A stretch of DNA of 52,355 bases from an uncultured Saprospirales bacterium (GTDB taxonomy: Bacteria > Bacteroidota > Bacteroidia > Chitinophagales > CAJXBJ01): assembly GCA_913050195.1 (NCBI GenBank), contig CAJXBJ010000003.1, positions 1 to 52,355 of the forward strand, read 5' to 3'. Below the pieces are notes generated by a model, which had not been told where the DNA came from, did no database searches, and saw only the letters and a list, made by a program, of their open reading frames with translations. This document shows, in pieces, positions 39,961 to 51,703 of the stretch (the first letter of the stretch is position 1; every line of letters begins with the position of its first letter). Made by a program: the position numbers and the translations under genes.

Positions 39961-40854
39961 ATGATTAATACTCCTAAAGGCAAACTAATAGCCGTCGGTG
40001 GTGCGGAAAATAAAGGCGTTGAATCGGATCAGCTTTTTAAGCAATATTCAAATGCGAACTTTGCAGAATTACAGGTATTGCGACGTATTATGAAGGAGAT
40101 GAAGTCCGAAAATCCTCATATTGAGGTTATTACGACGGCTTCAATGATACCAGAAGAGGTTGGGGCAAACTACATGGATGCTTTTGAAAAATTGAATTGC
40201 ACACGAGTGAGATTAATGCCAATAAAGGATAGGGAGGATACAAATAACCCAGATTTTATTGAAAGAATTAAAAAGGCGGATGGAGTCCTTTTTTCTGGTG
40301 GGAATCAACTTCGTTTAAGTATGATCTTTGGTGGTACTGAGATTATGGATATAATACATAGGCGTTATGAAGATGAGCCTTTTGTTATAGCAGGAACTAG
40401 TGCAGGTGCTATGGCGATGTCAAATACTATGATTTATCAGGGTAGTAGTAGTGAAGCTTTATTGAAAGGCGAGGTTAAAATCACAACAGGTCTAGCATTT
40501 ATTAAGGATGTTATTATTGATTCTCATTTTGTAAAAAGAGGTCGCATAGGTCGTTTGATGCAGGCTGTTGCGACTAACCCAGGATGTATTGGTATTGGCT
40601 TGGGAGAAGATACTGGAATTCTTATTTCAGAAGGAAATAAATTTGAGGCAATTGGGTCAGGCCTGGTTATTTTAGTTGATGGTCATGGTATTAAGCATAC
40701 TAATATTGTTGAGATCAGTGATGGTAGCCCAATTTCAATAGAGAACCTTATAGTCCATGTAATGGCTAAGGGTAATGGCTATAAATTGAAAGAAAGACGT
40801 TTTTACACTTCTGTTAATAAGGAAGAAGAGGCTGTTCAGAGCCAATCTTTATAA
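39961..40854 (+). CDS. cphB: Cyanophycinase (peptidase S51)
   Basis: LIAVGGAE, FSGGNQLRL and the catalytic-Ser block IAGTSAGAMAMS; 297 aa. It is divergent from cphA. Confidence 0.9.
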   Translation: MINTPKGKLIAVGGAENKGVESDQLFKQYSNANFAELQVLRRIMKEMKSENPHIEVITTASMIPEEVGANYMDAFEKLNCTRVRLMPIKDREDTNNPDFIERIKKADGVLFSGGNQLRLSMIFGGTEIMDIIHRRYEDEPFVIAGTSAGAMAMSNTMIYQGSSSEALLKGEVKITTGLAFIKDVIIDSHFVKRGRIGRLMQAVATNPGCIGIGLGEDTGILISEGNKFEAIGSGLVILVDGHGIKHTNIVEISDGSPISIENLIVHVMAKGNGYKLKERRFYTSVNKEEEAVQSQSL

Positions 40855-41765
40855 AAGCCTACTTTAGCTTTTTCATCACTCATTTTCACGCCTCTATACA
40901 TTCCTGCTGAATTAAATGGTAGACAATAGTTTCCATTGCAGTCCATGGCAATTAGACCGCCCTCACCACCAATATCAACCATTTTCTTGTGAATAAGTTC
41001 TTGTCCAGCCTCTTTAATGTTTAATCCTTTATATTCCATTAGTGCAGACATCTCATAAGCAGAAACTGCGCGTATAAAATACTCGCCGTCACCTGTGCAA
41101 GATACAGCACAGGTTTTATTATTTGCATAAGTACCTGCCCCTATAAGAGCGCTATCACCAACCCTTCCATATTTTTTATTAGTCATACCACCAGTCGATG
41201 TCCCAGCGCATATGTTTCCAAATTTATCAAGAGCAACACAGCCAACAGTACCAAACTTTTTTTGATCTGAATGATCCAAAAAAACTTCATCTGTTTGGAG
41301 GGCATGCTGATATTGACGATACCTAAATTCAGTATGAAAGAAGGTTTCATCCTCAAATTTTAAATTATGCTCTCTAGCAAAATCTTCAGCTCCGGTGCCA
41401 GTCAAATAAACATGGCTAGAGTGTAACAATATAGCTTTGGCCAGTAATATCGGATTTCTAACAGTTTTACTTCCAGAAATTGCACCTGCTTCCAAATCAT
41501 CTCCACGCATTATACTAGCATCCATATCATGGGTTCCATCATGGGTATAAACTGAACCACGACCAGCATTAAATAATGGAGAGTCCTCCATCACTTGAAT
41601 GGCAATACAAACAGCATCCGTAGCATTACTGCCCATTTCTAAACTTTGATAGGCTTCATCCAGTGATTTTTGTAAGCAAAATTTGTATTCCTTTTCAAGT
41701 TCAGGTGTCATAGCTGAGGGCAGAATAGTACCAGCACCTCCATGAATTACTAAGCCATATTTCAT
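40836..41765 (-). CDS. iaaA: Isoaspartyl peptidase / L-asparaginase (Ntn hydrolase, beta-Asp dipeptide cleavage)
   Basis: VIHGGAG, NAGRGS, the autoprocessing site FGTVGCVALD, and GDSALIGAGTYA; 309 aa. Its 3' end overlaps cphB by 19 nt in convergent orientation. Confidence 0.85.
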   Translation of the reverse strand: MKYGLVIHGGAGTILPSAMTPELEKEYKFCLQKSLDEAYQSLEMGSNATDAVCIAIQVMEDSPLFNAGRGSVYTHDGTHDMDASIMRGDDLEAGAISGSKTVRNPILLAKAILLHSSHVYLTGTGAEDFAREHNLKFEDETFFHTEFRYRQYQHALQTDEVFLDHSDQKKFGTVGCVALDKFGNICAGTSTGGMTNKKYGRVGDSALIGAGTYANNKTCAVSCTGDGEYFIRAVSAYEMSALMEYKGLNIKEAGQELIHKKMVDIGGEGGLIAMDCNGNYCLPFNSAGMYRGVKMSDEKAKVGFYKDWL

Positions 41766-41831
41766 AATACCTAGAATTGTGTATTTATAAAAATAAGAAG
41801 AATGTTTAGTTTTGTCGCCTAATCCAAAATT

Positions 41832-42863
41832 ATGATTAAATATTTTTTATCTATATGTGTTTTGTTAGCTTATTTATTTTTAGGCTGCAAGGGTAGTGCT
41901 GAACAGGAAAAAGCAGAAGTAAACGTTTATACGCATCGTTACTATGATATTGACAAAGACCTTTTTAAAGCATTTGAGGAAGAAACAGGAGTAAAGGTTA
42001 ATGTTAAGCATGACAAAACAGATAAATTGCTTAGTCTATTAAAAGCTGAGGGTAATCAAACTCAAGCAGATCTTTTAATCACCGTTGATGCAGGTAGATT
42101 GCAGTACGCAAGAGAAATGGACCTTTTGCAATCCTTTAAGTCTACTAAAATAGATAGTAATTTGCCTCAAAATTTCAGAGATAAAGATGGGTTTTGGATG
42201 GCATTAACTAGAAGGCACAGAGTAATAGCTTATCATAAAGGGCGTTTAGATACAGCATTAGTCAAAAATTATAGTGATTTAGGAAGGCAGGAATTAAATA
42301 GTCGACTTCTTATTCGGTCATCAAATAATATTTATAATCAATCTTTAGTGGCATCATTAATAGCCAATCAAGGTGCAGAAAATGCGTATGAGATAATTAA
42401 GGGTTGGGTAGCTAATTTTGCACGAACTCCTAAGGGAAATGATAGAGATCAGGTAAAGTCAGTGGCGCTAGGTGAAGGTGACTGTGCCGTTATTAATACC
42501 TATTATATAGGTAAACTAGCCTTTTCAAAAAATGAAGAAGAGCGTAAAGCAATATCGGATATAGGTATTATTTTTCCTAATCAGGAGACCACCGGAACGC
42601 ATACTAATATATCTGGAGCAGCAATAGTTAAGCATGCGCCGAATTACAATAATGCTGTTTTGCTTTTGGAATATTTAAGTTCATTGAAAGCGCAAGAGGC
42701 ATATGCCCATAAAAATTATGAGTTTCCTGTTAATCCAGATGCGAGTTTGCCAGAATTTTTGAGTCAATGGCCAAAGTTTAAAATAGATAGCCTTGATTTG
42801 AATAGCTTAGGCTATTATAATAAAGCAGCTGTAGAATTGATGGAGAAGGAGTCATGGTTTTAA
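41832..42863 (+). CDS. Fe(3+) ABC transporter substrate-binding lipoprotein (FbpA/AfuA-like)
   Basis: Lipobox LFLGC. VNVYTHRYY..FKAFEEETGVKVNV, FWMALTRRHRVIAYH, VINTYYIGKL (tandem Tyr as in FbpA iron ligands) and ISGAAIVKHAPN resemble Haemophilus FbpA as I recall it. Confidence 0.75.
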   Translation: MIKYFLSICVLLAYLFLGCKGSAEQEKAEVNVYTHRYYDIDKDLFKAFEEETGVKVNVKHDKTDKLLSLLKAEGNQTQADLLITVDAGRLQYAREMDLLQSFKSTKIDSNLPQNFRDKDGFWMALTRRHRVIAYHKGRLDTALVKNYSDLGRQELNSRLLIRSSNNIYNQSLVASLIANQGAENAYEIIKGWVANFARTPKGNDRDQVKSVALGEGDCAVINTYYIGKLAFSKNEEERKAISDIGIIFPNQETTGTHTNISGAAIVKHAPNYNNAVLLLEYLSSLKAQEAYAHKNYEFPVNPDASLPEFLSQWPKFKIDSLDLNSLGYYNKAAVELMEKESWF

Positions 42864-44383
42864 GGGCCAGTACTATAATTATTACTGTATTTTTAATCAG
42901 TCCTTTTTTATTTCTGTTTGTAGATATTGATTGGCCCTTTATAATATCAATTATTAAAAAGCATTGGCAAAGTGATTTTCATTGGACTTCACTTAAATTA
43001 ATGGCATTAGTGTCCATTTTATCTCTTTTTTGGGCAATTATACCTGCATGGTTAATTGCCTCGAAGGATTTTTTTGGTAGATCTATATTATCGGTGCTTC
43101 ATCTTATGCCACTTTGTATTCCAGCTTATATATTGGCTTATGTGTATGATGGTGTATTAGGGGCATATGGTACCTTAATGTCTTATACAGGAGTCTATTT
43201 TGATATAAAGAATATTTGGGGACTTACATTTGTGCTATCCTTAGCTTTATATCCTTATGTCTTTCTATTAACTAAAATCAGTTTTTCTAGACAATCCTAT
43301 GATTTGATTAATGCTGCTCGTAGTCTCAGACAAAATAGGATTCAACGTTTTGCTAAGGTGATTATTCCTTTGAGTCTTCCAGCTATAATAGGGGGACTGT
43401 TTCTTTTAAATATGGAGGTGTTGAATAATTTTGGTGCTGTGAGTTTTTATGGATTGAAAACTTATACTACCGAGATAATAAGATTATGGAACCCAATGGA
43501 CCTTTCTCCTGTGAAATATCTTGGGATTAGTCTGCTGCTATTGTTAATGTTGTTTCTCATTTTAGATTACATATACTTCAGAAATAAAGAGGTGTATGAA
43601 TCAAGTGGTGCGAATGTTGGATATGATAGAAATAAGCTAAGTGGTTACAAGAATTGGCTTGCTTTTTTTGTTTGCTTATTACCTGTATTATTTGCTTTAG
43701 TATTGCCTGTTTGTCAATTATTAATATGGGGTGTGCCTTTATTTATAGAGCAATTGGATAGTGGATTTTTAGAGCTCATAATTAATACTTTGGCTGTTGC
43801 ATTACTTGCATGCTTTGTATGTGTTTTATTAAGTCTATTTCTTTCAAGTATAAAGCATATGCTGAAAGAACCTTGGATCGATAAGTTTTCAAGACTTTGG
43901 GGCCTTGGCTATACTGTGCCTGGCGTATTACTAGGGGTTGGCATATTACTAATAGCATCTGACTTGTCAAAATTATTGGGAATTGGCTTAAGTCTATCTG
44001 TTTTTACTTTAGCAGCAGCCTATACATTGCGATTTAATGCTGTTTCTTATAATGCTTTAGATAGTGCATTTAAGAAATTTCCATTGAACATTCGTGAAGC
44101 ATCTTATAATCTAGGAAAAAATAAACATCATACCTGGTTAAAGGTCGATTTGCCTTTAATACGTCCATCTTTAATTGCAGCTTTGATATTGGTGTTTGTA
44201 GAAATAATAAAGGAATTGCCGTTAACCATGTTGTTTCATCACTTTAATTTTGAGACGCTTGCAATACGAGCATATATATTGATGGAAACAGATGGAGCTA
44301 TATATGAAGCCTCTGTTCCTTCATTGATAATCATTTTTATTAGTTTTATTCCTATATGGTATCTAAATAGTAAGAGTCAATAA
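42854..44383 (+). CDS. Iron(III) ABC transporter permease (fused two-lobe, FbpB-like)
   Basis: 509-aa polytopic protein with duplicated permease lobes. It overlaps the binding-protein gene by 10 nt. Confidence 0.75.
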   Translation: MVLRASTIIITVFLISPFLFLFVDIDWPFIISIIKKHWQSDFHWTSLKLMALVSILSLFWAIIPAWLIASKDFFGRSILSVLHLMPLCIPAYILAYVYDGVLGAYGTLMSYTGVYFDIKNIWGLTFVLSLALYPYVFLLTKISFSRQSYDLINAARSLRQNRIQRFAKVIIPLSLPAIIGGLFLLNMEVLNNFGAVSFYGLKTYTTEIIRLWNPMDLSPVKYLGISLLLLLMLFLILDYIYFRNKEVYESSGANVGYDRNKLSGYKNWLAFFVCLLPVLFALVLPVCQLLIWGVPLFIEQLDSGFLELIINTLAVALLACFVCVLLSLFLSSIKHMLKEPWIDKFSRLWGLGYTVPGVLLGVGILLIASDLSKLLGIGLSLSVFTLAAAYTLRFNAVSYNALDSAFKKFPLNIREASYNLGKNKHHTWLKVDLPLIRPSLIAALILVFVEIIKELPLTMLFHHFNFETLAIRAYILMETDGAIYEASVPSLIIIFISFIPIWYLNSKSQ

Positions 44384-45099
44384 TGGCCTTTTTGAGCGTA
44401 AATAATATTTCTAAGTCTTTCAAAGAAGAGAAAGTATTACAAAATTTATCATTTGATGTTAAGAAGAGTGAGCGTGTTGCTATCATTGGTGGAAGTGGTG
44501 ATGGGAAGTCTACTTTACTTAGACTAATTGCTGGTTTTGATTATTTAGATGGGGGGCAAATAGAATTAAATGGTCAGATAATTAGTTCAGAGTTATCGCA
44601 TATGGCACCTGAGTCAAGAAATATAGGAATGGTATTTCAGAATTATGCTTTGTTTCCTCACTTAAATGTAATGGAAAATATATGTTTTGGACTTGGCGTT
44701 GACAGAAATGAAACTGATGTCAAAAAATATATCTTAATGCTTGGACTTGAAGGTATGGAAGCAAAGTATCCTCATGAGCTTTCAGGTGGACAGCAGCAGC
44801 GATTAGCGATAGGTAGAAGTTTGATTTTACGCCCGCCATTAATGTTGTTAGATGAAGTGATGAGTAATGTGGATGTATTAAATAAAAATAGCTTAATTAA
44901 AGATATATCGAATATATCTAGGGAGTTAGACTTGACTTTGTTATTTGTTACTCATGATATTAGAGATGCTGTTGCTCTGTGTGATCGTTTTTTATTTATT
45001 GAAGATGGTAAATTAGTTCAGGATGGAACCTTAAATGAAATAAGAGCTAATCCGGCCTCAGACTTTATTATGGCTCATCTTAACTTGATATTTAGATGA
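44383..45099 (+). CDS. ABC transporter ATP-binding protein, short form without a C-terminal TOBE/regulatory domain
   Basis: Walker A GGSGDGKST, Q-loop MVFQNYALFPHL, signature LSGGQQQR, Walker B LLDEVMSNVD and H-loop FVTHD. It overlaps the permease stop by 1 nt (TAATG). Confidence 0.85.
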   Translation: MAFLSVNNISKSFKEEKVLQNLSFDVKKSERVAIIGGSGDGKSTLLRLIAGFDYLDGGQIELNGQIISSELSHMAPESRNIGMVFQNYALFPHLNVMENICFGLGVDRNETDVKKYILMLGLEGMEAKYPHELSGGQQQRLAIGRSLILRPPLMLLDEVMSNVDVLNKNSLIKDISNISRELDLTLLFVTHDIRDAVALCDRFLFIEDGKLVQDGTLNEIRANPASDFIMAHLNLIFR

Positions 45100-45121
45100 A
45101 TAAAATACCCATAATTAGGTA

Positions 45122-45172
45122 TTGTTTGGGATTACTCATGCTATAACTTTGCTGCTGTTTAGAATCGTTCTA
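45122..45172 (+). promoter_or_regulatory. Candidate promoter (-33 TTG, -7 TAACTTTG) plus a 5-3-5 inverted repeat upstream of the DUF4856 operon
   Basis: TTG at 45122-45124, TAACTTTG at 45144-45151 (TAnnTTTG), then TAGAA-TCG-TTCTA at 45160-45172, roughly where transcription should start. The ATG is at 45203. Confidence 0.3.
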
Positions 45173-45202
45173 AATAAAGTATTGTTAAATAAAAAAAATA
45201 AG

Positions 45203-46267
45203 ATGTTTAAATTAAAATCCTTTACAATTTTAGCGTTTTGCGCAGGTATCTTGGCATTTCAGTCTTGTAAAAAAGACAACAATGATTATGACGTACCAAC
45301 TACTTACAATTTTACTAATGTTAGCTACAGTGGACAAACTGAAAGATTAGATATGCTAGCAGAACTTGAGACGTATATGAAGACCTCAAATACTTCTGGA
45401 ACTGCCGTTGAAGCAGCTACAATGAAAGCAATGTATGCAAATGATGGTCACACATGGACAGAGTCTGCATTAAATAGTTCTACTAAAGATCTTAAAAGTA
45501 AAAGTTTTGAAATTGCTCAGGCAGAGATAGAAGCTAGTATGGATGCACTTGCTGCAGCAAGTCAATCAACAACAGCTGGTTCTAAGGGTACAGCAGGAGT
45601 TGTAGAAAGTAATGATGGTGCGAAAGCATATCTATTTGATGAAAATGGTATTGAGCATACTCAGCTTATTGCTAAAGGTATAATGGGAGCTTGTTTATAT
45701 TATCAAATGACTTCTGTGTACACTGGAACAGATAAGATGAATGTAGACAATGAAACAGTTGAAGAAGGTAAAGGCACTGAGATGGAGCATCATTGGGATG
45801 AAGCATTTGGCTATTACGGCGCGCCAATTGACTTTACGAATGCTACTACAACTGGATACAGATATTGGGCAAAATACTCTTTTAAAGGAGACGCTGATCA
45901 TGATCTAATCAACAAAGTTATGACTGCCTTCATCAAAGGTAGAGCTGCTATTTCTAATGATGATCTTGACACTAGAGATGCTCAAATCACAGAGCTAAGA
46001 GCTCAGTTAGAAATGGTATCTGCAACTACAGCAATTTATTATTTAGAAAGTGCGAAAGCTGATTTAGCTGACGATGCGCTTAGAAATCACCAACTTTCTG
46101 AAGCTCATGCGTTTATAAAAGCACTTGAGTATAATGTTGATAAAACTATTAGTTCAGCTCAAATTACTACTGTGTTAGGTCACTTAGGCACAAACTTTTA
46201 TGATGTTTCTGCTAGTAACATCGATGCAGCAGTTGCCGAGTTAAAAACAATCTATGGAATTCAGTAA
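45203..46267 (+). CDS. DUF4856-like lipoprotein with an HxxE motif (imelysin/EfeM-related)
   Basis: The in-frame ATG at 45203 gives a lipoprotein signal, MFKLKSFTILAFCAGILAFQSC; the track start at 45122 is a TTG-type extension. It contains EMEHHWDEAFGYYGAP (HxxE). Confidence 0.65.
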   Translation: MFKLKSFTILAFCAGILAFQSCKKDNNDYDVPTTYNFTNVSYSGQTERLDMLAELETYMKTSNTSGTAVEAATMKAMYANDGHTWTESALNSSTKDLKSKSFEIAQAEIEASMDALAAASQSTTAGSKGTAGVVESNDGAKAYLFDENGIEHTQLIAKGIMGACLYYQMTSVYTGTDKMNVDNETVEEGKGTEMEHHWDEAFGYYGAPIDFTNATTTGYRYWAKYSFKGDADHDLINKVMTAFIKGRAAISNDDLDTRDAQITELRAQLEMVSATTAIYYLESAKADLADDALRNHQLSEAHAFIKALEYNVDKTISSAQITTVLGHLGTNFYDVSASNIDAAVAELKTIYGIQ

Positions 46268-47393
46268 TAGCTACTTATATAAAATCTATTCCATATCCGC
46301 CATCCTACTCACACTTTTTGTGTGGGTAGGATGCCGTGGTAAGGATAATCCTGAACCTGGCAATACAGTTGATAAGGCTGCAATAATGTCAAATATTGGT
46401 GAGGAATTAATCTTGCCTAGATATGATAATATGATAATTGATTTTAATGCTCTGAAAGCTTCGGGTGATGCTTTTATTAATAGTGTCGATGTTAGCACGC
46501 TTGAGAGTTTAAGAGTCTCTTTTATTTCAGCATATAAATCATGGCAACATGTTTCAGTATTTGAGTTTGGTCCTGCTGAGAGTAAAACCTTAAAGGCTAT
46601 AATGAATACCTTTCCGACAGATACTGCTCAGATAAACTCTAATATGGCCTCTGGGGTATATAATTTAGAAGCAGCTTCAAATCTGGATGCAATTGGTTTT
46701 CCAGCAATTGATTTTCTGATATATGGTACTGGTACAAATAGTTCAGAAGTCGTGAGTTATTTTAGTGATTCTTCCTTAGGTCAGTCACGTAGACAGTATT
46801 TGAATGATTTATTGGAGCTTATGAATAGCTATTTTACCGAGGTTCAAAATGGATGGCTTTCGAGTGGGGGGAATTATATTACGACCTTCAAAGAAAGTCA
46901 AGGAACTGAGGCCGGAAGTTCAATAAGTTTACTTGTAAATAATTTGAATAAGGATTTTGAAATAATCAAAAATGCTCGAGTTGGCATTCCTTTAGGAAAA
47001 AAGACATTGGATGTACCTCTTCCTTATAAAACTGAAGCATATTATTCAGGTCGTTCTCTTGAGCTAGCTATAGAGAGTTTAAGATCATTAAAGCTTTTAT
47101 ATGCGGGAATAAGTAATTCAGGCGTTGATGGTGATGGTTTAGATGACTATATCAAAGGCTTAGAAAATGAAGGTGTTGTTCAAGGGCTTCATGACGATAT
47201 ATGGAGTGGTTTTGAATCAATACAAACAAAAATGGAGAGTATACCAGATCCTTTAAGTGATCAAATAATAAATAATTCTTCTGATGTAAATGACCTTTAC
47301 AGCTTGATACTACAACAATTAGTCCGCATAAAGACGGATATGCCTTCAGCAATGGGTGTATTAATTACGTATCAAGATAACGATGGTGACTAA
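46254..47393 (+). CDS. Imelysin-family (peptidase M75-like) lipoprotein, HxxE-less variant
   Basis: Lipobox FVWVGC and an imelysin-like block, ..FISAYKSWQHVSVFEFGPAE... The protein has only two His residues and no HxxE. It overlaps the upstream gene by 14 nt. Confidence 0.65.
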   Translation: MEFSNSYLYKIYSISAILLTLFVWVGCRGKDNPEPGNTVDKAAIMSNIGEELILPRYDNMIIDFNALKASGDAFINSVDVSTLESLRVSFISAYKSWQHVSVFEFGPAESKTLKAIMNTFPTDTAQINSNMASGVYNLEAASNLDAIGFPAIDFLIYGTGTNSSEVVSYFSDSSLGQSRRQYLNDLLELMNSYFTEVQNGWLSSGGNYITTFKESQGTEAGSSISLLVNNLNKDFEIIKNARVGIPLGKKTLDVPLPYKTEAYYSGRSLELAIESLRSLKLLYAGISNSGVDGDGLDDYIKGLENEGVVQGLHDDIWSGFESIQTKMESIPDPLSDQIINNSSDVNDLYSLILQQLVRIKTDMPSAMGVLITYQDNDGD

Positions 47394-48732
47394 ATGGGAT
47401 AGAAAGAATTCTATAGCACCTTTGATTGTCTTTAGGATGATTTTTGGTGCTATAATGTTTATTAGTATCCTTAGGTTTTTGATTAAAGGTTGGGTTCATG
47501 AAAATTTCATTGAACCCAATTTTCATTTTAAATACTACGGTTTTGAGTGGATAGAGCCTTTAGGGCCTATAGGGATGTATTTAGTTTTTGCAGGACTTTT
47601 AATATGCTCATTTAATATTTTAGTGGGTTTTTATTATCGCACTTCAGTAGTGCTTTTTTTTCTTGGATTTACCTATGTTGAGTTAATTGATATAACCTAT
47701 TATCTCAATCATTATTATTTTATAAGCTTAATTGCTTTTTTAATGATATTTATGCCTGCTGATCGAGCTTTTTCCTTGTACGTTTATCAAAGGCCAAAGC
47801 AAAAAATTAATTATATACCATATGGATATATATTGGCTTTACAGCTAATGATTTCAATTCTGTATATACATGCTGGTTTAGCTAAGTTAAATTATGATTG
47901 GATGTTTCGAGCAATGCCCCTATCTATATGGCTTCCTTCTCATTCACATATGCCATTAATAGGTTCTTTCTTTGCTTTAAAGGAAGCTGCATATGTTTTT
48001 AGTTGGATTGGTTGTCTGTTTGATGTTTTTATTGTTGCATTCTTGTTAAATAAAGGGACGAGAGTTTGGGCGTATATTGTACTGACTATATTTCACCTAT
48101 TTACTGCTTTGTTATTTCAAATAGGTATGTTTCCGTATGTTATGATATTGCTTACATTAATTTTCTTTAAGGATCGTTTGCATGAAAGAATAATATATTA
48201 CATCTCTATCTTTTTGCCTAAAAAATCAACTAATGGGGTTAAAGAAGATGCTTTAATATTTAAACTTCCATCCTTAACTAAATATGTTTTTTTGTTGTTT
48301 TTTATATTTCAGTTTATAATGCCATGGAGATTTATTTTATATCCTGGTAATTTATTTTGGACTGAGCAGGGATACAACTTTTCATGGAGAGTAATGTTAA
48401 TGGAAAAGTCAGGCCATGCCACCTTTCATGTTCAACAAGAAGGTATTAAAGGTTCGATAGAGGTAGAAAATAGTACTTTCTTAACCCCAATTCAAGAAAA
48501 GATGATGTCAACGCAGCCAGATTTAATACTACAGTTTGCCCGTTATTTGAGTGCGTATTATAAGGATTATGAAGTTTTGGATTCTTTGGTTATAAAGAAG
48601 CCAGTGATTACTGCAGATGTTTTTGTGAGTCTAAATGGAAGAAAAAACAAGAGATTTATTGATCCAACAGTTAATTTAGCGGCCGTGGAAAATAATCTAT
48701 TGCATAAAAAATGGATTTTGCCTTTTGAGTGA
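47383..48732 (+). CDS. HTTM-domain integral membrane protein (vitamin K-dependent gamma-carboxylase-like)
   Basis: N-terminal IAPLIVFRMIFGAIMFISILRF..., a polytopic first ~270 aa and a soluble C-terminal ~170 aa. It overlaps the imelysin gene by 11 nt. Confidence 0.7.
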   Translation: MVTKWDRKNSIAPLIVFRMIFGAIMFISILRFLIKGWVHENFIEPNFHFKYYGFEWIEPLGPIGMYLVFAGLLICSFNILVGFYYRTSVVLFFLGFTYVELIDITYYLNHYYFISLIAFLMIFMPADRAFSLYVYQRPKQKINYIPYGYILALQLMISILYIHAGLAKLNYDWMFRAMPLSIWLPSHSHMPLIGSFFALKEAAYVFSWIGCLFDVFIVAFLLNKGTRVWAYIVLTIFHLFTALLFQIGMFPYVMILLTLIFFKDRLHERIIYYISIFLPKKSTNGVKEDALIFKLPSLTKYVFLLFFIFQFIMPWRFILYPGNLFWTEQGYNFSWRVMLMEKSGHATFHVQQEGIKGSIEVENSTFLTPIQEKMMSTQPDLILQFARYLSAYYKDYEVLDSLVIKKPVITADVFVSLNGRKNKRFIDPTVNLAAVENNLLHKKWILPFE

Positions 48733-51169
48733 TTTAGTAATAAATAGGGTCTTTAAGTTATTATTTCTATTAACCTTTTTAATATCAAGTAAAGGTTTAT
48801 ATATATATTCTCAAAATACAGAAATAGAAGGATTTGTAAAAGATATAAAAGGAGAAAAAATTGAGGGCGTTCAGGTTCTTTTGTTGCCAGGAGAATATAA
48901 TTCTATTACTGATAAAAACGGTTTGTTTTCATTAAGTGCTATTCCTTATGGGACTTATAAAGTGAAGTTTTTTTTAGTAGGCTATGAAACAATAAATGAG
49001 TCTATTACTTTAAGTCATAGTTTTCAAAAGATGGATATTACCTTGACCTCAGAAGAGAGACAAATGGCTACATTGCAGGTTGAAAGTGCAAGAAGTGATC
49101 AGTTTACTATTAGACGCTTAAGGGCAGTGGATGGTACATCAATATATGCTTCAAAAAAAAATGAATTGGTTTACGTAGATGATTTGCTGGCTAATAAAGC
49201 ACTAAATAATGGTCGACAGATTTTTGCTAAAGTAGCAGGCCTTAATATTTGGGAGTCTGGAGAAGGAGGTATTCAATTAGGTATTGGTGGACGAGGTTTA
49301 AGTCCAAAACGAACTACTAATTTTAATACAAGGCAAAATGGTTATGATATGAGTGCAGATGCGCTTGGTTATCCAGAATCTTATTATACGCCGTGTATGG
49401 AAAGTGTTGAGCGCATTGAAATTATACGTGGTGCTGCATCACTTCAATATGGAACACAGTTTGGTGGCCTTCTTAATTTTATTATGAAGAAGGGTGAAGA
49501 AGATAAGCCATTAGTTTTTGAATCAAAGCAAACTATAGGGAGCTATGGTTTGTTTAATAGCTTTAATAGAATAGGGGGCACAAAAGGAAAGTTTCAATAT
49601 TTTCTAAGTCATCAATTTAAGATGGGCGATAGTTGGAGGCCAAATGGATCATTTGAATTGCAAAATATTTATACTAGTGTCTATTATAAATTGAAAGAAA
49701 ACAGTCATGTAGGATTAGAATATACGAAGTACTTTTATGATGCACAGCAGCCTGGTGGCTTAACGGATATTTTATTTAATCAAGATGCTTCTCAATCAAT
49801 TAGGGAGCGTAATTGGTTTAGTATTGATTGGAATATGTTAGCCTTAAATTTTGATTATGTTTTTAATAATGATGATAAATTAAATTCGCGATTTTTTGCT
49901 TTAAGTGCTAGTAGAAAATCTGTTGGATTTTTGGGTTTAATTTCAAGAACCGATCCATTGGATGAGAGGGATCTCATTATTGGAGATTATTTAAATGTCG
50001 GTAATGAAACTAGATGGATGCAAAAATATTCTTTTGGCAACATAATGGGTACTTTCTTGCTTGGTGGAAGGTTTTATACAGGCGAGACAAGAAGTCGGCA
50101 AGGATTGGGTGATTCAGGTTATGGCGCTAATTATGCTTTCTTAAACCCAAATGATTTGGAGGGTTCAGACTATTTTTTTCCATCCTTTAATACTTCTTTT
50201 TTTGTTGAGAATTATCTCTCTATCAATGATAAATGGTCTATAACCCCCGGTATTCGTTATGAGCATATTTATACTGGTTCTCAAGGGTACTTCAAATTGA
50301 TGAATAAAGATTTAGCTGGTAATATAATTTATGAAAATAACCTTACAGATACATTTAGTAGGAAGAGAGATTTAGTGCTTTTTGGTGTTGGTTCTAGTTT
50401 TAAACATAATGGGGCAGAAATATATGGTAATTTCAGTCAAAATTATAGGGCGATAAATTTTACTGATTTAAGAGTAAACAACCCTAATTTGGAGGTGGAT
50501 ACTAATATTCAGGATGAAAGGGGGTTTAACGTAGATTTGGGCTTTAGAGGTATTTTTAAAAATGTAATTAATTATGACTTATCATTTTTTATGCTCTTTT
50601 ATAAAGACCGTATTGGGGCCGTTTATAGGGTAGATAGTGCTACTTATCGACTTTATCAGTACAGAACAAATGTAGCGGACTCAAGAAACATTGGTGTTGA
50701 AAGTTTATTTGAAATTGATATTTTGAAGCTTTTAAATAAAACTTATGATAAGTTTCAAGTTCTTTGGTTTCATAATATCTCAGTTATTGATGCAAAATAT
50801 ATAAATTCAAAGGAGTCAGCAGTAGATCAACGAAGAGTAGAGCTAGTGCCTAGCTTTAATTATAAAACAGGCATTAATTTGAGCTATAAAAAGTTAAGCT
50901 CATCGATACAATATGGTTATGTTTCAAAGCAATACACTGATGCAACCAATGCTGTTTTCACATCCTCTGCAGTTAGTGGTATAATTCCGTCATATCAAAT
51001 TGTTGATATATCAATAGCCTACTCGATGAATAAGTTAAAGGCAGAGCTTGGTTTAAATAATGCGTTAAATGAAATTTACTTTACAAGAAGAGCTACAGCA
51101 TATCCAGGTCCAGGCATTATTCCATCAGATCCTAGGGTTTTTTACTTAACGTTATCCTGTAAGTTATAG
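48725..51169 (+). CDS. TonB-dependent outer-membrane receptor with an N-terminal CarboxypepD_reg-like domain
   Basis: IEGFVKD..GVQVLL..TDKNGLFSL..GTYKVKFFLVGYE, the plug block IEIIRGAASLQYGTQFGGLLNFIMK and a long beta-barrel. TTG start overlapping the HTTM stop by 8 nt. Confidence 0.85.
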   Translation: MSDLVINRVFKLLFLLTFLISSKGLYIYSQNTEIEGFVKDIKGEKIEGVQVLLLPGEYNSITDKNGLFSLSAIPYGTYKVKFFLVGYETINESITLSHSFQKMDITLTSEERQMATLQVESARSDQFTIRRLRAVDGTSIYASKKNELVYVDDLLANKALNNGRQIFAKVAGLNIWESGEGGIQLGIGGRGLSPKRTTNFNTRQNGYDMSADALGYPESYYTPCMESVERIEIIRGAASLQYGTQFGGLLNFIMKKGEEDKPLVFESKQTIGSYGLFNSFNRIGGTKGKFQYFLSHQFKMGDSWRPNGSFELQNIYTSVYYKLKENSHVGLEYTKYFYDAQQPGGLTDILFNQDASQSIRERNWFSIDWNMLALNFDYVFNNDDKLNSRFFALSASRKSVGFLGLISRTDPLDERDLIIGDYLNVGNETRWMQKYSFGNIMGTFLLGGRFYTGETRSRQGLGDSGYGANYAFLNPNDLEGSDYFFPSFNTSFFVENYLSINDKWSITPGIRYEHIYTGSQGYFKLMNKDLAGNIIYENNLTDTFSRKRDLVLFGVGSSFKHNGAEIYGNFSQNYRAINFTDLRVNNPNLEVDTNIQDERGFNVDLGFRGIFKNVINYDLSFFMLFYKDRIGAVYRVDSATYRLYQYRTNVADSRNIGVESLFEIDILKLLNKTYDKFQVLWFHNISVIDAKYINSKESAVDQRRVELVPSFNYKTGINLSYKKLSSSIQYGYVSKQYTDATNAVFTSSAVSGIIPSYQIVDISIAYSMNKLKAELGLNNALNEIYFTRRATAYPGPGIIPSDPRVFYLTLSCKL

Positions 51170-51181
51170 AAGCCAGACTTT

Positions 51182-51703
51182 CTAAGCTCCTGCATTATCT
51201 TGAGCAGCACTTATAACATTCATTTGTTCTATATCCCTATCAAACATATATAATGCTGCGTTATCAGTTCCAATGAGCCTTATCTTATCCATTATTGTGC
51301 GCGCTAGAGCTTCTTCCTCTATTTGCTCGGACACATACCATTGTAAGAAGTTATGAGTTGTATAATCTCTTTCTTTCAAACAAATTTCTACTAAACTATT
51401 AATCTCATTTGTTACATGAACTTCATGCTTTAGAAGGTTATCAAAAACATCCTTAACCGATTTATAGCTAACAGGTGGTTTCTTAAGTGCTGGTATTACT
51501 GCTTTTCCTCCTCTCTCATTCACAAACTTAATAAGTTTCAACATGTGTTGACGCTCTTCATCAGAATGAATATACATGAAATTTGCAATTCCTCCATAGC
51601 CCTCACATTCAGCCCATGATGCCATTGCTAAATATACCTGAGAAGAATAGGCCTCTAATTCAATTTGATGGTTAAGAGCTTTGTCAATTCTTTTTGCTAA
51701 CAT
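51182..51703 (-). CDS. ftnA: Non-haem bacterial ferritin
   Basis: Di-iron ligand blocks LEAYSSQVYLAMASW, SDEERQHMLKLIKFVNERGG and LKHEVHVTNE; 173 aa. Confidence 0.88.
   Translation of the reverse strand: MLAKRIDKALNHQIELEAYSSQVYLAMASWAECEGYGGIANFMYIHSDEERQHMLKLIKFVNERGGKAVIPALKKPPVSYKSVKDVFDNLLKHEVHVTNEINSLVEICLKERDYTTHNFLQWYVSEQIEEEALARTIMDKIRLIGTDNAALYMFDRDIEQMNVISAAQDNAGA

Follow-up and report, generated by a model that had tools for sequence, protein, structure and literature searches.

We analyzed a 52,355-nucleotide (nt) stretch of DNA from an uncultured Saprospirales bacterium (contig CAJXBJ010000003.1 of assembly GCA_913050195.1, positions 1 to 52,355; hereafter the window), centering on a gene at 47383-48732 that encodes an HTTM membrane enzyme resembling the vitamin-K-dependent carboxylase GGCX. 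This gene is the third of four that lie tightly spaced on the plus strand and form a cassette: a DUF4856 lipoprotein gene (45203-46267; 354 amino acids (aa), Pfam DUF4856 3.8e-47), an imelysin-like lipoprotein gene (46254-47393; 379 aa, lipobox Cys27, Pfam Peptidase_M75 5.8e-36 over residues 53-344), the HTTM gene itself (449 aa from an ATG start, nine transmembrane helices) and a TonB-dependent receptor gene (48725-51169; 814 aa, with an N-terminal CarboxypepD_reg domain, plug and barrel). Consecutive genes overlap by 14, 11 and 8 nt, and the HTTM ATG sits within GAT-GGT-GAC-TAA, the terminal codons of the imelysin gene. An earlier reading of the sequence (hereafter the original prediction) had described the HTTM open reading frame and its overlaps with the imelysin and receptor genes, all of which Pfam annotation and the 11-nt and 8-nt overlaps confirmed. 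For the DUF4856 gene, we placed the true start at ATG 45203 (MFKLKSF...FQSC lipobox, Cys22) instead of the listed TTG 45122, because a Fur-box-like perfect palindrome, TTTAGAAtcgTTCTAAA, occupies 45158-45174 (no strand assigned), 29 bp 5' of the ATG; the signal peptide read from this start is of the lipoprotein type, MFKLKSFTILAFCAGILAFQSC. The receptor likely starts at TTG 48725, because no in-frame ATG precedes its signal peptide. The source genome is a 2.03-Mb metagenome-assembled genome, 75.6% complete, and carries one HTTM gene.

The HTTM protein matched two Pfam families far beyond their cut-offs, namely HTTM (PF05090, 2.9e-71, residues 7-263) and VKGC_lumenal_dom (PF22777, 2e-51, residues 298-448), and phmmer aligned its residues 2-447 to residues 52-504 of human GGCX (1.2e-29, ~25% identity). 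An AlphaFold 2 (AF2) model built with 55 relatives reached a pLDDT of 86.9 and a pTM of 0.89, the less confident part being residues 324-339, that is the linker forming the Glu site in GGCX. In a Foldseek search of the PDB, all hits under E 0.3 were GGCX structures, sixteen in number, with TMq reaching 0.83 and E values as low as 1.5e-21. The nine helices of the model place the N-terminus inside and the C-terminal domain outside, as in GGCX, with 13 Lys or Arg among 66 cytoplasmic loop residues versus 3 among 68 periplasmic ones. This topology brings H110, K168, F245 and F250 to the periplasmic face, which bears out the periplasm-facing active site supposed in the original prediction. Fold, nine-helix topology and the position of the active site on the non-cytoplasmic face are thus shared with GGCX. 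The lumenal region of GGCX consists of clamp A, clamp B and a C-terminal domain (PMC12647623). The bacterial protein (449 aa versus 758 aa) ends at the equivalent of human residue ~504 and therefore keeps, apart from its membrane domain, only the first of the lumenal clamps, here a clamp-A-like periplasmic domain of residues 320-449; it differs from GGCX in missing clamp B and the C-terminal domain and in its setting of bacterial iron uptake. Its closest relatives share only 53-54% identity with it. By sequence, the gene encodes a minimal bacterial ortholog of the vitamin-K-dependent carboxylase.

We took residue roles from cryogenic electron microscopy papers (PMC12589487, PMC12647623) and from PMC13486548, mapped human onto window positions by pairwise HMMER alignment and counted residues in 149 proteins of the cassette clade. 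The catalytic base K218 and its partner D263 correspond to K168 and D214 (148/149 each), H160 of the quinone/CO2 pocket to H110 (149/149), N159 of the Glu site to N109 (148/149) and W223 of the quinone pocket to W173 (147/149). Similarly, F286, F294 and F299 of the quinone/CO2 pocket are found as F237, F245 and F250 (148, 149 and 148 of 149), Y395, which stacks on the substrate, as Y331 (132 Tyr and 16 Phe of 149), and the linker residues S398 and W399 as S334 and W335 (143 and 148 of 149). At the Glu/CO2 site, pairwise mapping showed M402 to be kept and R406 to be present as Lys in the clade. The catalytic Lys/Asp pair, the vitamin K pocket aromatics, F299 and H160 of the CO2 pocket and the Glu-stacking Tyr are hence common to GGCX and the window's enzyme, and the catalytic residues on which the original prediction had staked its case proved nearly invariant among the relatives. 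Giant-virus homologs with epoxidase activity only are described as having no 374-418 region (PMC13486548); unlike in these viral epoxidases, the equivalent region is present and strongly conserved in the cassette clade, and its near-invariant stretch WTExGYRFSWRVMLMEK corresponds to human residues 390-406. Across 123 highly conserved positions, the window's protein differs from its clade at 8. The source genome encodes menA (253.6 bits versus a cut-off of 102), so the quinone is menaquinone, as the original prediction of a menaquinone-type organism had it. By analogy with GGCX, the HTTM protein is very probably a working enzyme that faces the periplasm and draws on menaquinol.

The cassette order (DUF4856 lipoprotein, imelysin lipoprotein, HTTM, TonB-dependent receptor) recurs in Flammeovirga, Flavitalea and Aliifodinibius. 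Adding 30 species-representative genomes to these three gave a set of 33 loci, in which an imelysin gene lies upstream in 33/33 and a receptor gene downstream in 32/33 cases, and tblastn detected a DUF4856 gene in 29/33. Among 80 named Bacteroidota loci, the receptor was present in all 76 that leave room for it, the imelysin in 70/76 (plus four slightly further off) and DUF4856 in 66/71 cases; in total, more than 100 Bacteroidota loci keep the gene order. By pattern scan, at least 571 species have a relative. Even sampling of the phylum showed a relative in 80/400 high-quality genomes and 52/180 genera, and one family had none among 86 genomes. A second clade with HTTM and lumenal domains (~33% identity; 10 loci, L065-L074) has no cassette genes nearby and is uninformative on the function of the window's enzyme. 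In Flavobacteriia, three members of this clade (L066, L068, L074) have neighbors that look like housekeeping genes, and they keep K218, D263, H160 and N290 as in the human enzyme, with His at Y395. The family and the cassette have been annotated before, and an iron response of the cassette appears in a published table (PMC5609570); we found no published discussion of the HTTM enzyme's role in the cassette, including in literature pairing 'HTTM' with 'imelysin'.

The imelysin gene continues beyond its Pfam domain into a C-terminal extension of residues 345-379 (47286-47390, plus strand), which contains K360 and ends in ...ITYQDNDGD, the last three residues being D377-G378-D379 (codons 47382-47390). 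Sequence matches in the PDB were the Bacteroides ovatus imelysin 3n8u and 4ecg. An alignment of 34 imelysins with 38% mean identity had only nine invariant columns, which comprised the lipid-bearing Cys, four scattered residues, K360 and D377-G378-D379. The D-G-D end and a Lys at -20 were present in 110/110 HTTM-adjacent imelysins, with no length variation between them. Five-residue endings were DNDGD in 62, SGDGD in 24 and DADGD in 10 of these proteins, with a few others. At the codon level, the first Asp was encoded by GAC in 58 and GAT in 52 of the 110 loci, the Gly by all four of its codons and the last Asp by GAT in 70 and GAC in 40; all three stop codons followed, and the gap to the HTTM start ranged from overlap to hundreds of bases. 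Free codon use and variable distance to the HTTM gene indicate that the constraint acts on the protein and not on an overlapping start codon. The tail was missing from 7/7 imelysin-family lipoproteins encoded elsewhere in a 120-genome sample, one of them beside the same cassette. The tail-less protein beside the cassette (locus L161, G078:C1:1108324-1112253) is encoded by a second, divergent imelysin gene that follows the receptor gene. Of the 154 proteins that matched imelysin residues 325-379 in a search, all those with names belonged to Bacteroidota.

Prediction of a complex between HTTM and mature imelysin gave an ipSAE of 0.77 (0.76, 0.78 and 0.77 in individual runs) versus 0.11, 0.00 and 0.00 for the controls. 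In a calibration that is only rough, because we supplied our own alignments, 58 of 80 solved complexes attained the 0.77 mark, as did 2 of 110 mismatched pairs. At least 75% of contacts were common to the runs, with a partner pLDDT of 87 or more. All predicted contacts on the HTTM side are at the periplasmic face; residues 106, 108, 245-250 and 338 lie beside the active site, and a further contact region, the hairpin 355-362, aligns to human residues 419-426 of clamp A, within the propeptide-contacting stretch Y415-F431. The GGCX residues touching the propeptide are Y415, Y425, L426, V430 and F431 (PMC12647623), of which Y425 and L426 fall in the hairpin equivalent, with Y415, V430 and F431 lying to either side of it. 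For imelysin, the predicted interface covers residues 240-254, 303-315 and 353-379, including K360 and the D-G-D end and, with them, four of the eight modeled invariant residues; residues 41-42, 14 residues from the lipid-bearing Cys, also take part.

Upstream of the cassette, the palindrome at 45158-45174 is the only exact match in the 52 kb and agrees with the published predicted Fur box of Riemerella anatipestifer at 16 of 19 positions (PMC5609570). Within 300 bp 5' of DUF4856, a Fur-box match with at most two mismatches was present at 15 of 30 loci versus 5 of 580 random 330-bp chunks from the same loci, a somewhat flattering contrast because the control chunks are mostly coding. Fur itself is encoded in the source genome. 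In R. anatipestifer, the genes RAYM_09779-09794, annotated as a TonB-dependent receptor (TBDR), a 'vitamin K-dependent gamma-carboxylase', an imelysin lipoprotein and a hypothetical protein, were 2.1- to 3.1-fold up without iron (Guo et al. 2017, Table 4; PMC5609570). This locus shares with the window the four genes, their order and a nearly identical predicted Fur box, with orthology drawn from annotation and gene order; induction by iron limitation is published for R. anatipestifer only, where the genes figure in an expression table and not in a functional study. The iron capture system of Capnocytophaga showed no link to the cassette: the R. anatipestifer paper that describes it (PMC5429918) names another locus and makes no mention of an imelysin or a carboxylase. 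Our best reading is that the cassette is a Fur-controlled, iron-starvation unit of Bacteroidota.

Together, these findings are best explained by a GGCX-like menaquinol/O2 enzyme that acts on or with the imelysin tail in an iron cassette, a reading on which our judgment is evenly balanced. By analogy with GGCX, the periplasm-facing active site would take menaquinol and O2, and K168, aided by D214, would deprotonate the menaquinol, so that the oxygenated quinone becomes a strong base; this base could then pull a proton from the carbon beside a carboxylate, letting CO2 add. The upstream-encoded imelysin lipoprotein would be the working partner, its extension (a helix with the invariant Lys, then 20 residues to D-G-D-COOH) docking on the periplasmic domain and the active-site mouth. 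In this arrangement, the tail is laid out much like a GGCX substrate, in which a docking element is followed by a fixed-length spacer and then by acidic residues; we consider the acidic tail of imelysin most likely to be the substrate of the enzyme. Carboxylation of Asp would yield a malonate-type group able to chelate Fe(III) or Ca(II), which might serve iron capture or hand-off in the uptake system. The original prediction had proposed Gla-like modification of Glu in both co-encoded lipoproteins, for example in the acidic EMEHHWDE region of DUF4856; modification of a co-encoded lipoprotein gains support with an altered target, the imelysin D-G-D tail, and EMEHHWDE found no support. To our knowledge, GGCX is the sole known vitamin-K-dependent carboxylase of proteins; we know of no propeptide-bearing Gla (gamma-carboxyglutamate) protein in bacteria, nor, among the thousands of bacterial GGCX relatives, of one with a known protein target. 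In its strongest version, which we regard as rather unlikely, our reading would make imelysin the first protein recognized as a natural substrate of a bacterial vitamin-K-dependent carboxylase, with one or both D-G-D Asp residues carboxylated in the periplasm using menaquinol, O2 and CO2/bicarbonate to form an Fe(III)-binding malonate claw for a TonB-dependent uptake system.

A precedent for chemistry on Asp instead of Glu comes from MloH of malonomycin biosynthesis in Streptomyces (Law et al. 2018), which is described as a bacterial GGCX relative that carboxylates an aspartate-derived carbon (PMC12186529, PMC12647623). Its characterization, like the reported assay of a Leptospira ortholog, makes the statement in the original prediction that bacterial HTTM proteins are essentially uncharacterised slightly overstated. 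The likeness is drawn from these published descriptions, and MloH differs in acting on a polyketide/non-ribosomal peptide intermediate, in being encoded within a cluster for secondary metabolism, in having an additional domain fused to its HTTM region and in having no tie to iron uptake or lipoproteins. A homolog from a member of the Bacteroidota, Kordia algicida, is shown in the conservation figure of PMC12647623.

Several observations weigh against imelysin as the substrate of a carboxylase. The protein lacks clamp B and the C-terminal domain, from which half of the GGCX propeptide cleft is built, and several positions that contact substrate in GGCX are fixed differently in the cassette clade (N158 to L, N290 to T, M401 to V, H404 to M, R436 to M/Q and K217 to A/S), the N290 position being Thr in 148/149 proteins. 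Going by these residues, the substrate pocket of the HTTM enzyme appears to differ from the GGCX pocket. The window's protein itself, moreover, has N332 where 147/148 relatives carry Arg, within the GYRFSW substrate-binding linker. The D-G-D tail co-occurs with the whole cassette, so that genomics alone cannot assign it to HTTM over the receptor or DUF4856. At the predicted interface, HTTM residues are no more conserved than the remaining periplasmic surface (0.69 versus 0.71, permutation p ~0.6), and the support for imelysin binding to HTTM with its tail in the interface is model confidence rather than measurement; the complex was read without coordinates, so the reach of D-G-D to K168 is not derivable from it. 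Carboxylation by the cassette is likewise a prediction. VKOR (PF07884), which would recycle a quinone epoxide, was not found in the 75.6%-complete source genome; neither was a terminal oxidase (COX1, COX2, FixO or cytochrome bd) found in this incomplete assembly, an absence we read as an assembly gap because 20/20 relatives searched carry COX1. Finally, acidic residues follow the lipobox Cys in both lipoproteins of the cassette and resemble the surface-export signal of Bacteroidota lipoproteins. By this signal, both may reside on the cell surface; if so, contact with an inner-membrane enzyme would have to be transient, fitting a substrate better than a subunit.

The closest rival also keeps imelysin as the partner and casts it as a stable subunit that replaces clamp B and the C-terminal domain and presents iron or an iron-ligand to a menaquinol-linked redox site, where the enzyme would reduce Fe(III), oxidize Fe(II) or oxygenate the ligand. 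The HTTM protein would then be an iron-free counterpart of EfeB and the di-heme peroxidases, in line with the first idea of the original prediction, that of a quinol-coupled redox enzyme acting on the transported metal or ligand; we consider this possible but would hold it tentatively. In EfeUOB and imelysin/peroxidase operons, an imelysin-like protein is found with a heme peroxidase (EfeB or DUF1111), and EfeU is the permease (PMC3143127). The cassette resembles these systems in coupling an iron-regulated imelysin-like protein to an oxidant-using envelope redox enzyme. It differs in that the enzyme would use a quinone as cofactor where EfeUOB has a heme peroxidase, that it includes an outer-membrane receptor, and that the window's imelysin is without the His of GxHxxE (GPAE at residues 106-109). 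Pfam annotation of the ten open reading frames in 39961-51703 revealed no peroxidase or FTR1/EfeU gene, and HTTM occupies the peroxidase's place in the cassette, as a redox role would have it. The K218/D263 pair would suit any quinol-oxidizing site, the complex prediction fits a subunit equally well, and the interface contacts at imelysin residues 41-42 near the lipid-bearing Cys fit anchoring near the same membrane. A parallel exists in the DUF5819 + HTTM pairs of Firmicutes and Actinobacteria, for which an AlphaFold 3 (AF3) complex has been predicted (bioRxiv 10.64898/2026.08.19.745780). There, too, a truncated bacterial HTTM enzyme has a separately encoded partner predicted on its outer face, with DUF5819 predicted to replace the missing lumenal domain; those pairs differ in that the partner is a small protein with a single transmembrane segment, that the HTTM protein carries a DCC1-like domain and that imelysin, TonB receptor and Fur box are absent. 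What a redox subunit does not account for is the conservation of the CO2-pocket and Glu-site residues (F299, H160, M402, Y395 and WTExGYRFSWRVM), which equals that of the quinol site and which plain electron transfer leaves unexplained. Furthermore, the invariant last three residues and the 20-residue spacing look more like a substrate or a ruler than a docking surface, and no metal- or heme-binding motif is evident in HTTM.

Another proposal, which we judge very unlikely, limits the enzyme to quinol oxygenase (epoxidase) activity, with an indirect role in iron starvation such as O2 consumption or tuning of the quinone pool and no specific action on the cassette proteins. In work by Rishavy and colleagues in 2005, a Leptospira ortholog reportedly showed epoxidase activity and no Glu-carboxylase activity when assayed, and the changes at several Glu-contact residues of GGCX point the same way. 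Giant-virus homologs have likewise been read as epoxidases (PMC13486548), but the region equivalent to 374-418 is almost invariant in the cassette clade, unlike in these viral proteins. The four-gene linkage across the phylum and the specific complex predicted with imelysin argue for a cassette-specific role instead, and the VKOR that would recycle an epoxide was not found in the incomplete genome. Least probable of all, and in our view highly improbable, is a non-catalytic inner-membrane scaffold or iron permease with a merely ancestral resemblance to GGCX: of the four cassette proteins, HTTM alone is integral to the inner membrane, and most cassettes have no adjacent permease, but near-total conservation of the catalytic Lys, Asp and His and the aromatic pocket in 149 proteins would be unexpected, Foldseek against the PDB gave no fold similarity to any transporter, and an ATP-binding cassette (ABC) importer adjoins the cassette in the window.

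Numbered from its corrected start codon, the DUF4856 lipoprotein carries EMEHHWDE at residues 193-200, with the motif E195-H-x-W-D199-E200; H196 is conserved in 20, D199 in 25 and E200 in 20 of 26 proteins, and H296-x-x-x-E300 is invariant. An AF2 model (pLDDT 91.4) places both motifs in helices. By this model, the EHxWDE and HxxxE motifs look like an ordinary direct metal site for which no modification would be needed. A weak NCBIfam match to a FEA1-related lipoprotein, found in 11 of 26 DUF4856 proteins (best 3.4e-11, far under the cut-off), spans the region with both motifs and hints at a distant link to the algal FEA1/ISIP2a proteins, relatives of which bind ferric iron in algae (PMC7676907). 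Foldseek with the DUF4856 model returned no PDB match at E <= 0.001, and structure alignment with VIA-align gave generic four-helix-bundle matches only (best Z 8.6 over 94 residues). We also considered DUF4856 as a hidden imelysin and rejected it: profile-profile comparison (83% probability) aligned the signal peptide and lipobox region only, which is no evidence of homology.

Outside the conserved cassette, an accessory ABC transporter adjoins it on the plus strand (41832-45099) and consists of a solute-binding protein, a permease of 509 aa with two fused BPD_transp_1 halves and an ATPase. The closest named models are of the aminoethylphosphonate, thiamine, ferric and molybdate types, all under cut-offs; judging from these matches, the transporter is probably of the ferric-iron or a related type and may be the inner-membrane route of the imported iron. 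A homolog of the solute-binding protein adjoins the cassette at two further loci (L004, L035). On the other side, a non-heme ferritin gene (51182-51703, minus strand) is convergent with the cassette, and ferritin homologs occur within a few kb of it at L039 and L055. Further upstream, the region 39961-41765 holds two convergent genes with a 19-nt overlap, one for a cyanophycinase-like Peptidase_S51 protein and one for an Asparaginase_2 protein of the isoaspartyl peptidase type, a pair that would suit the breakdown of cyanophycin or beta-aspartyl dipeptides.

In sum, the cassette links a bacterial enzyme of the GGCX type to iron starvation and to a candidate partner, the nine-residue terminal peptide of which could be traced by mass spectrometry. 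If HTTM is a quinol-driven redox partner of imelysin, this would explain how the imelysin system of Bacteroidota operates without a heme peroxidase when iron is scarce. If, in turn, the tail is modified, this would amount to a new bacterial post-translational modification and a new principle of iron capture, and would reveal the ancestral job of the carboxylase. Carboxylation of imelysin, if true, would be an ancient bacterial chemistry of metal acquisition that animals later reused for their Ca-binding Gla proteins.

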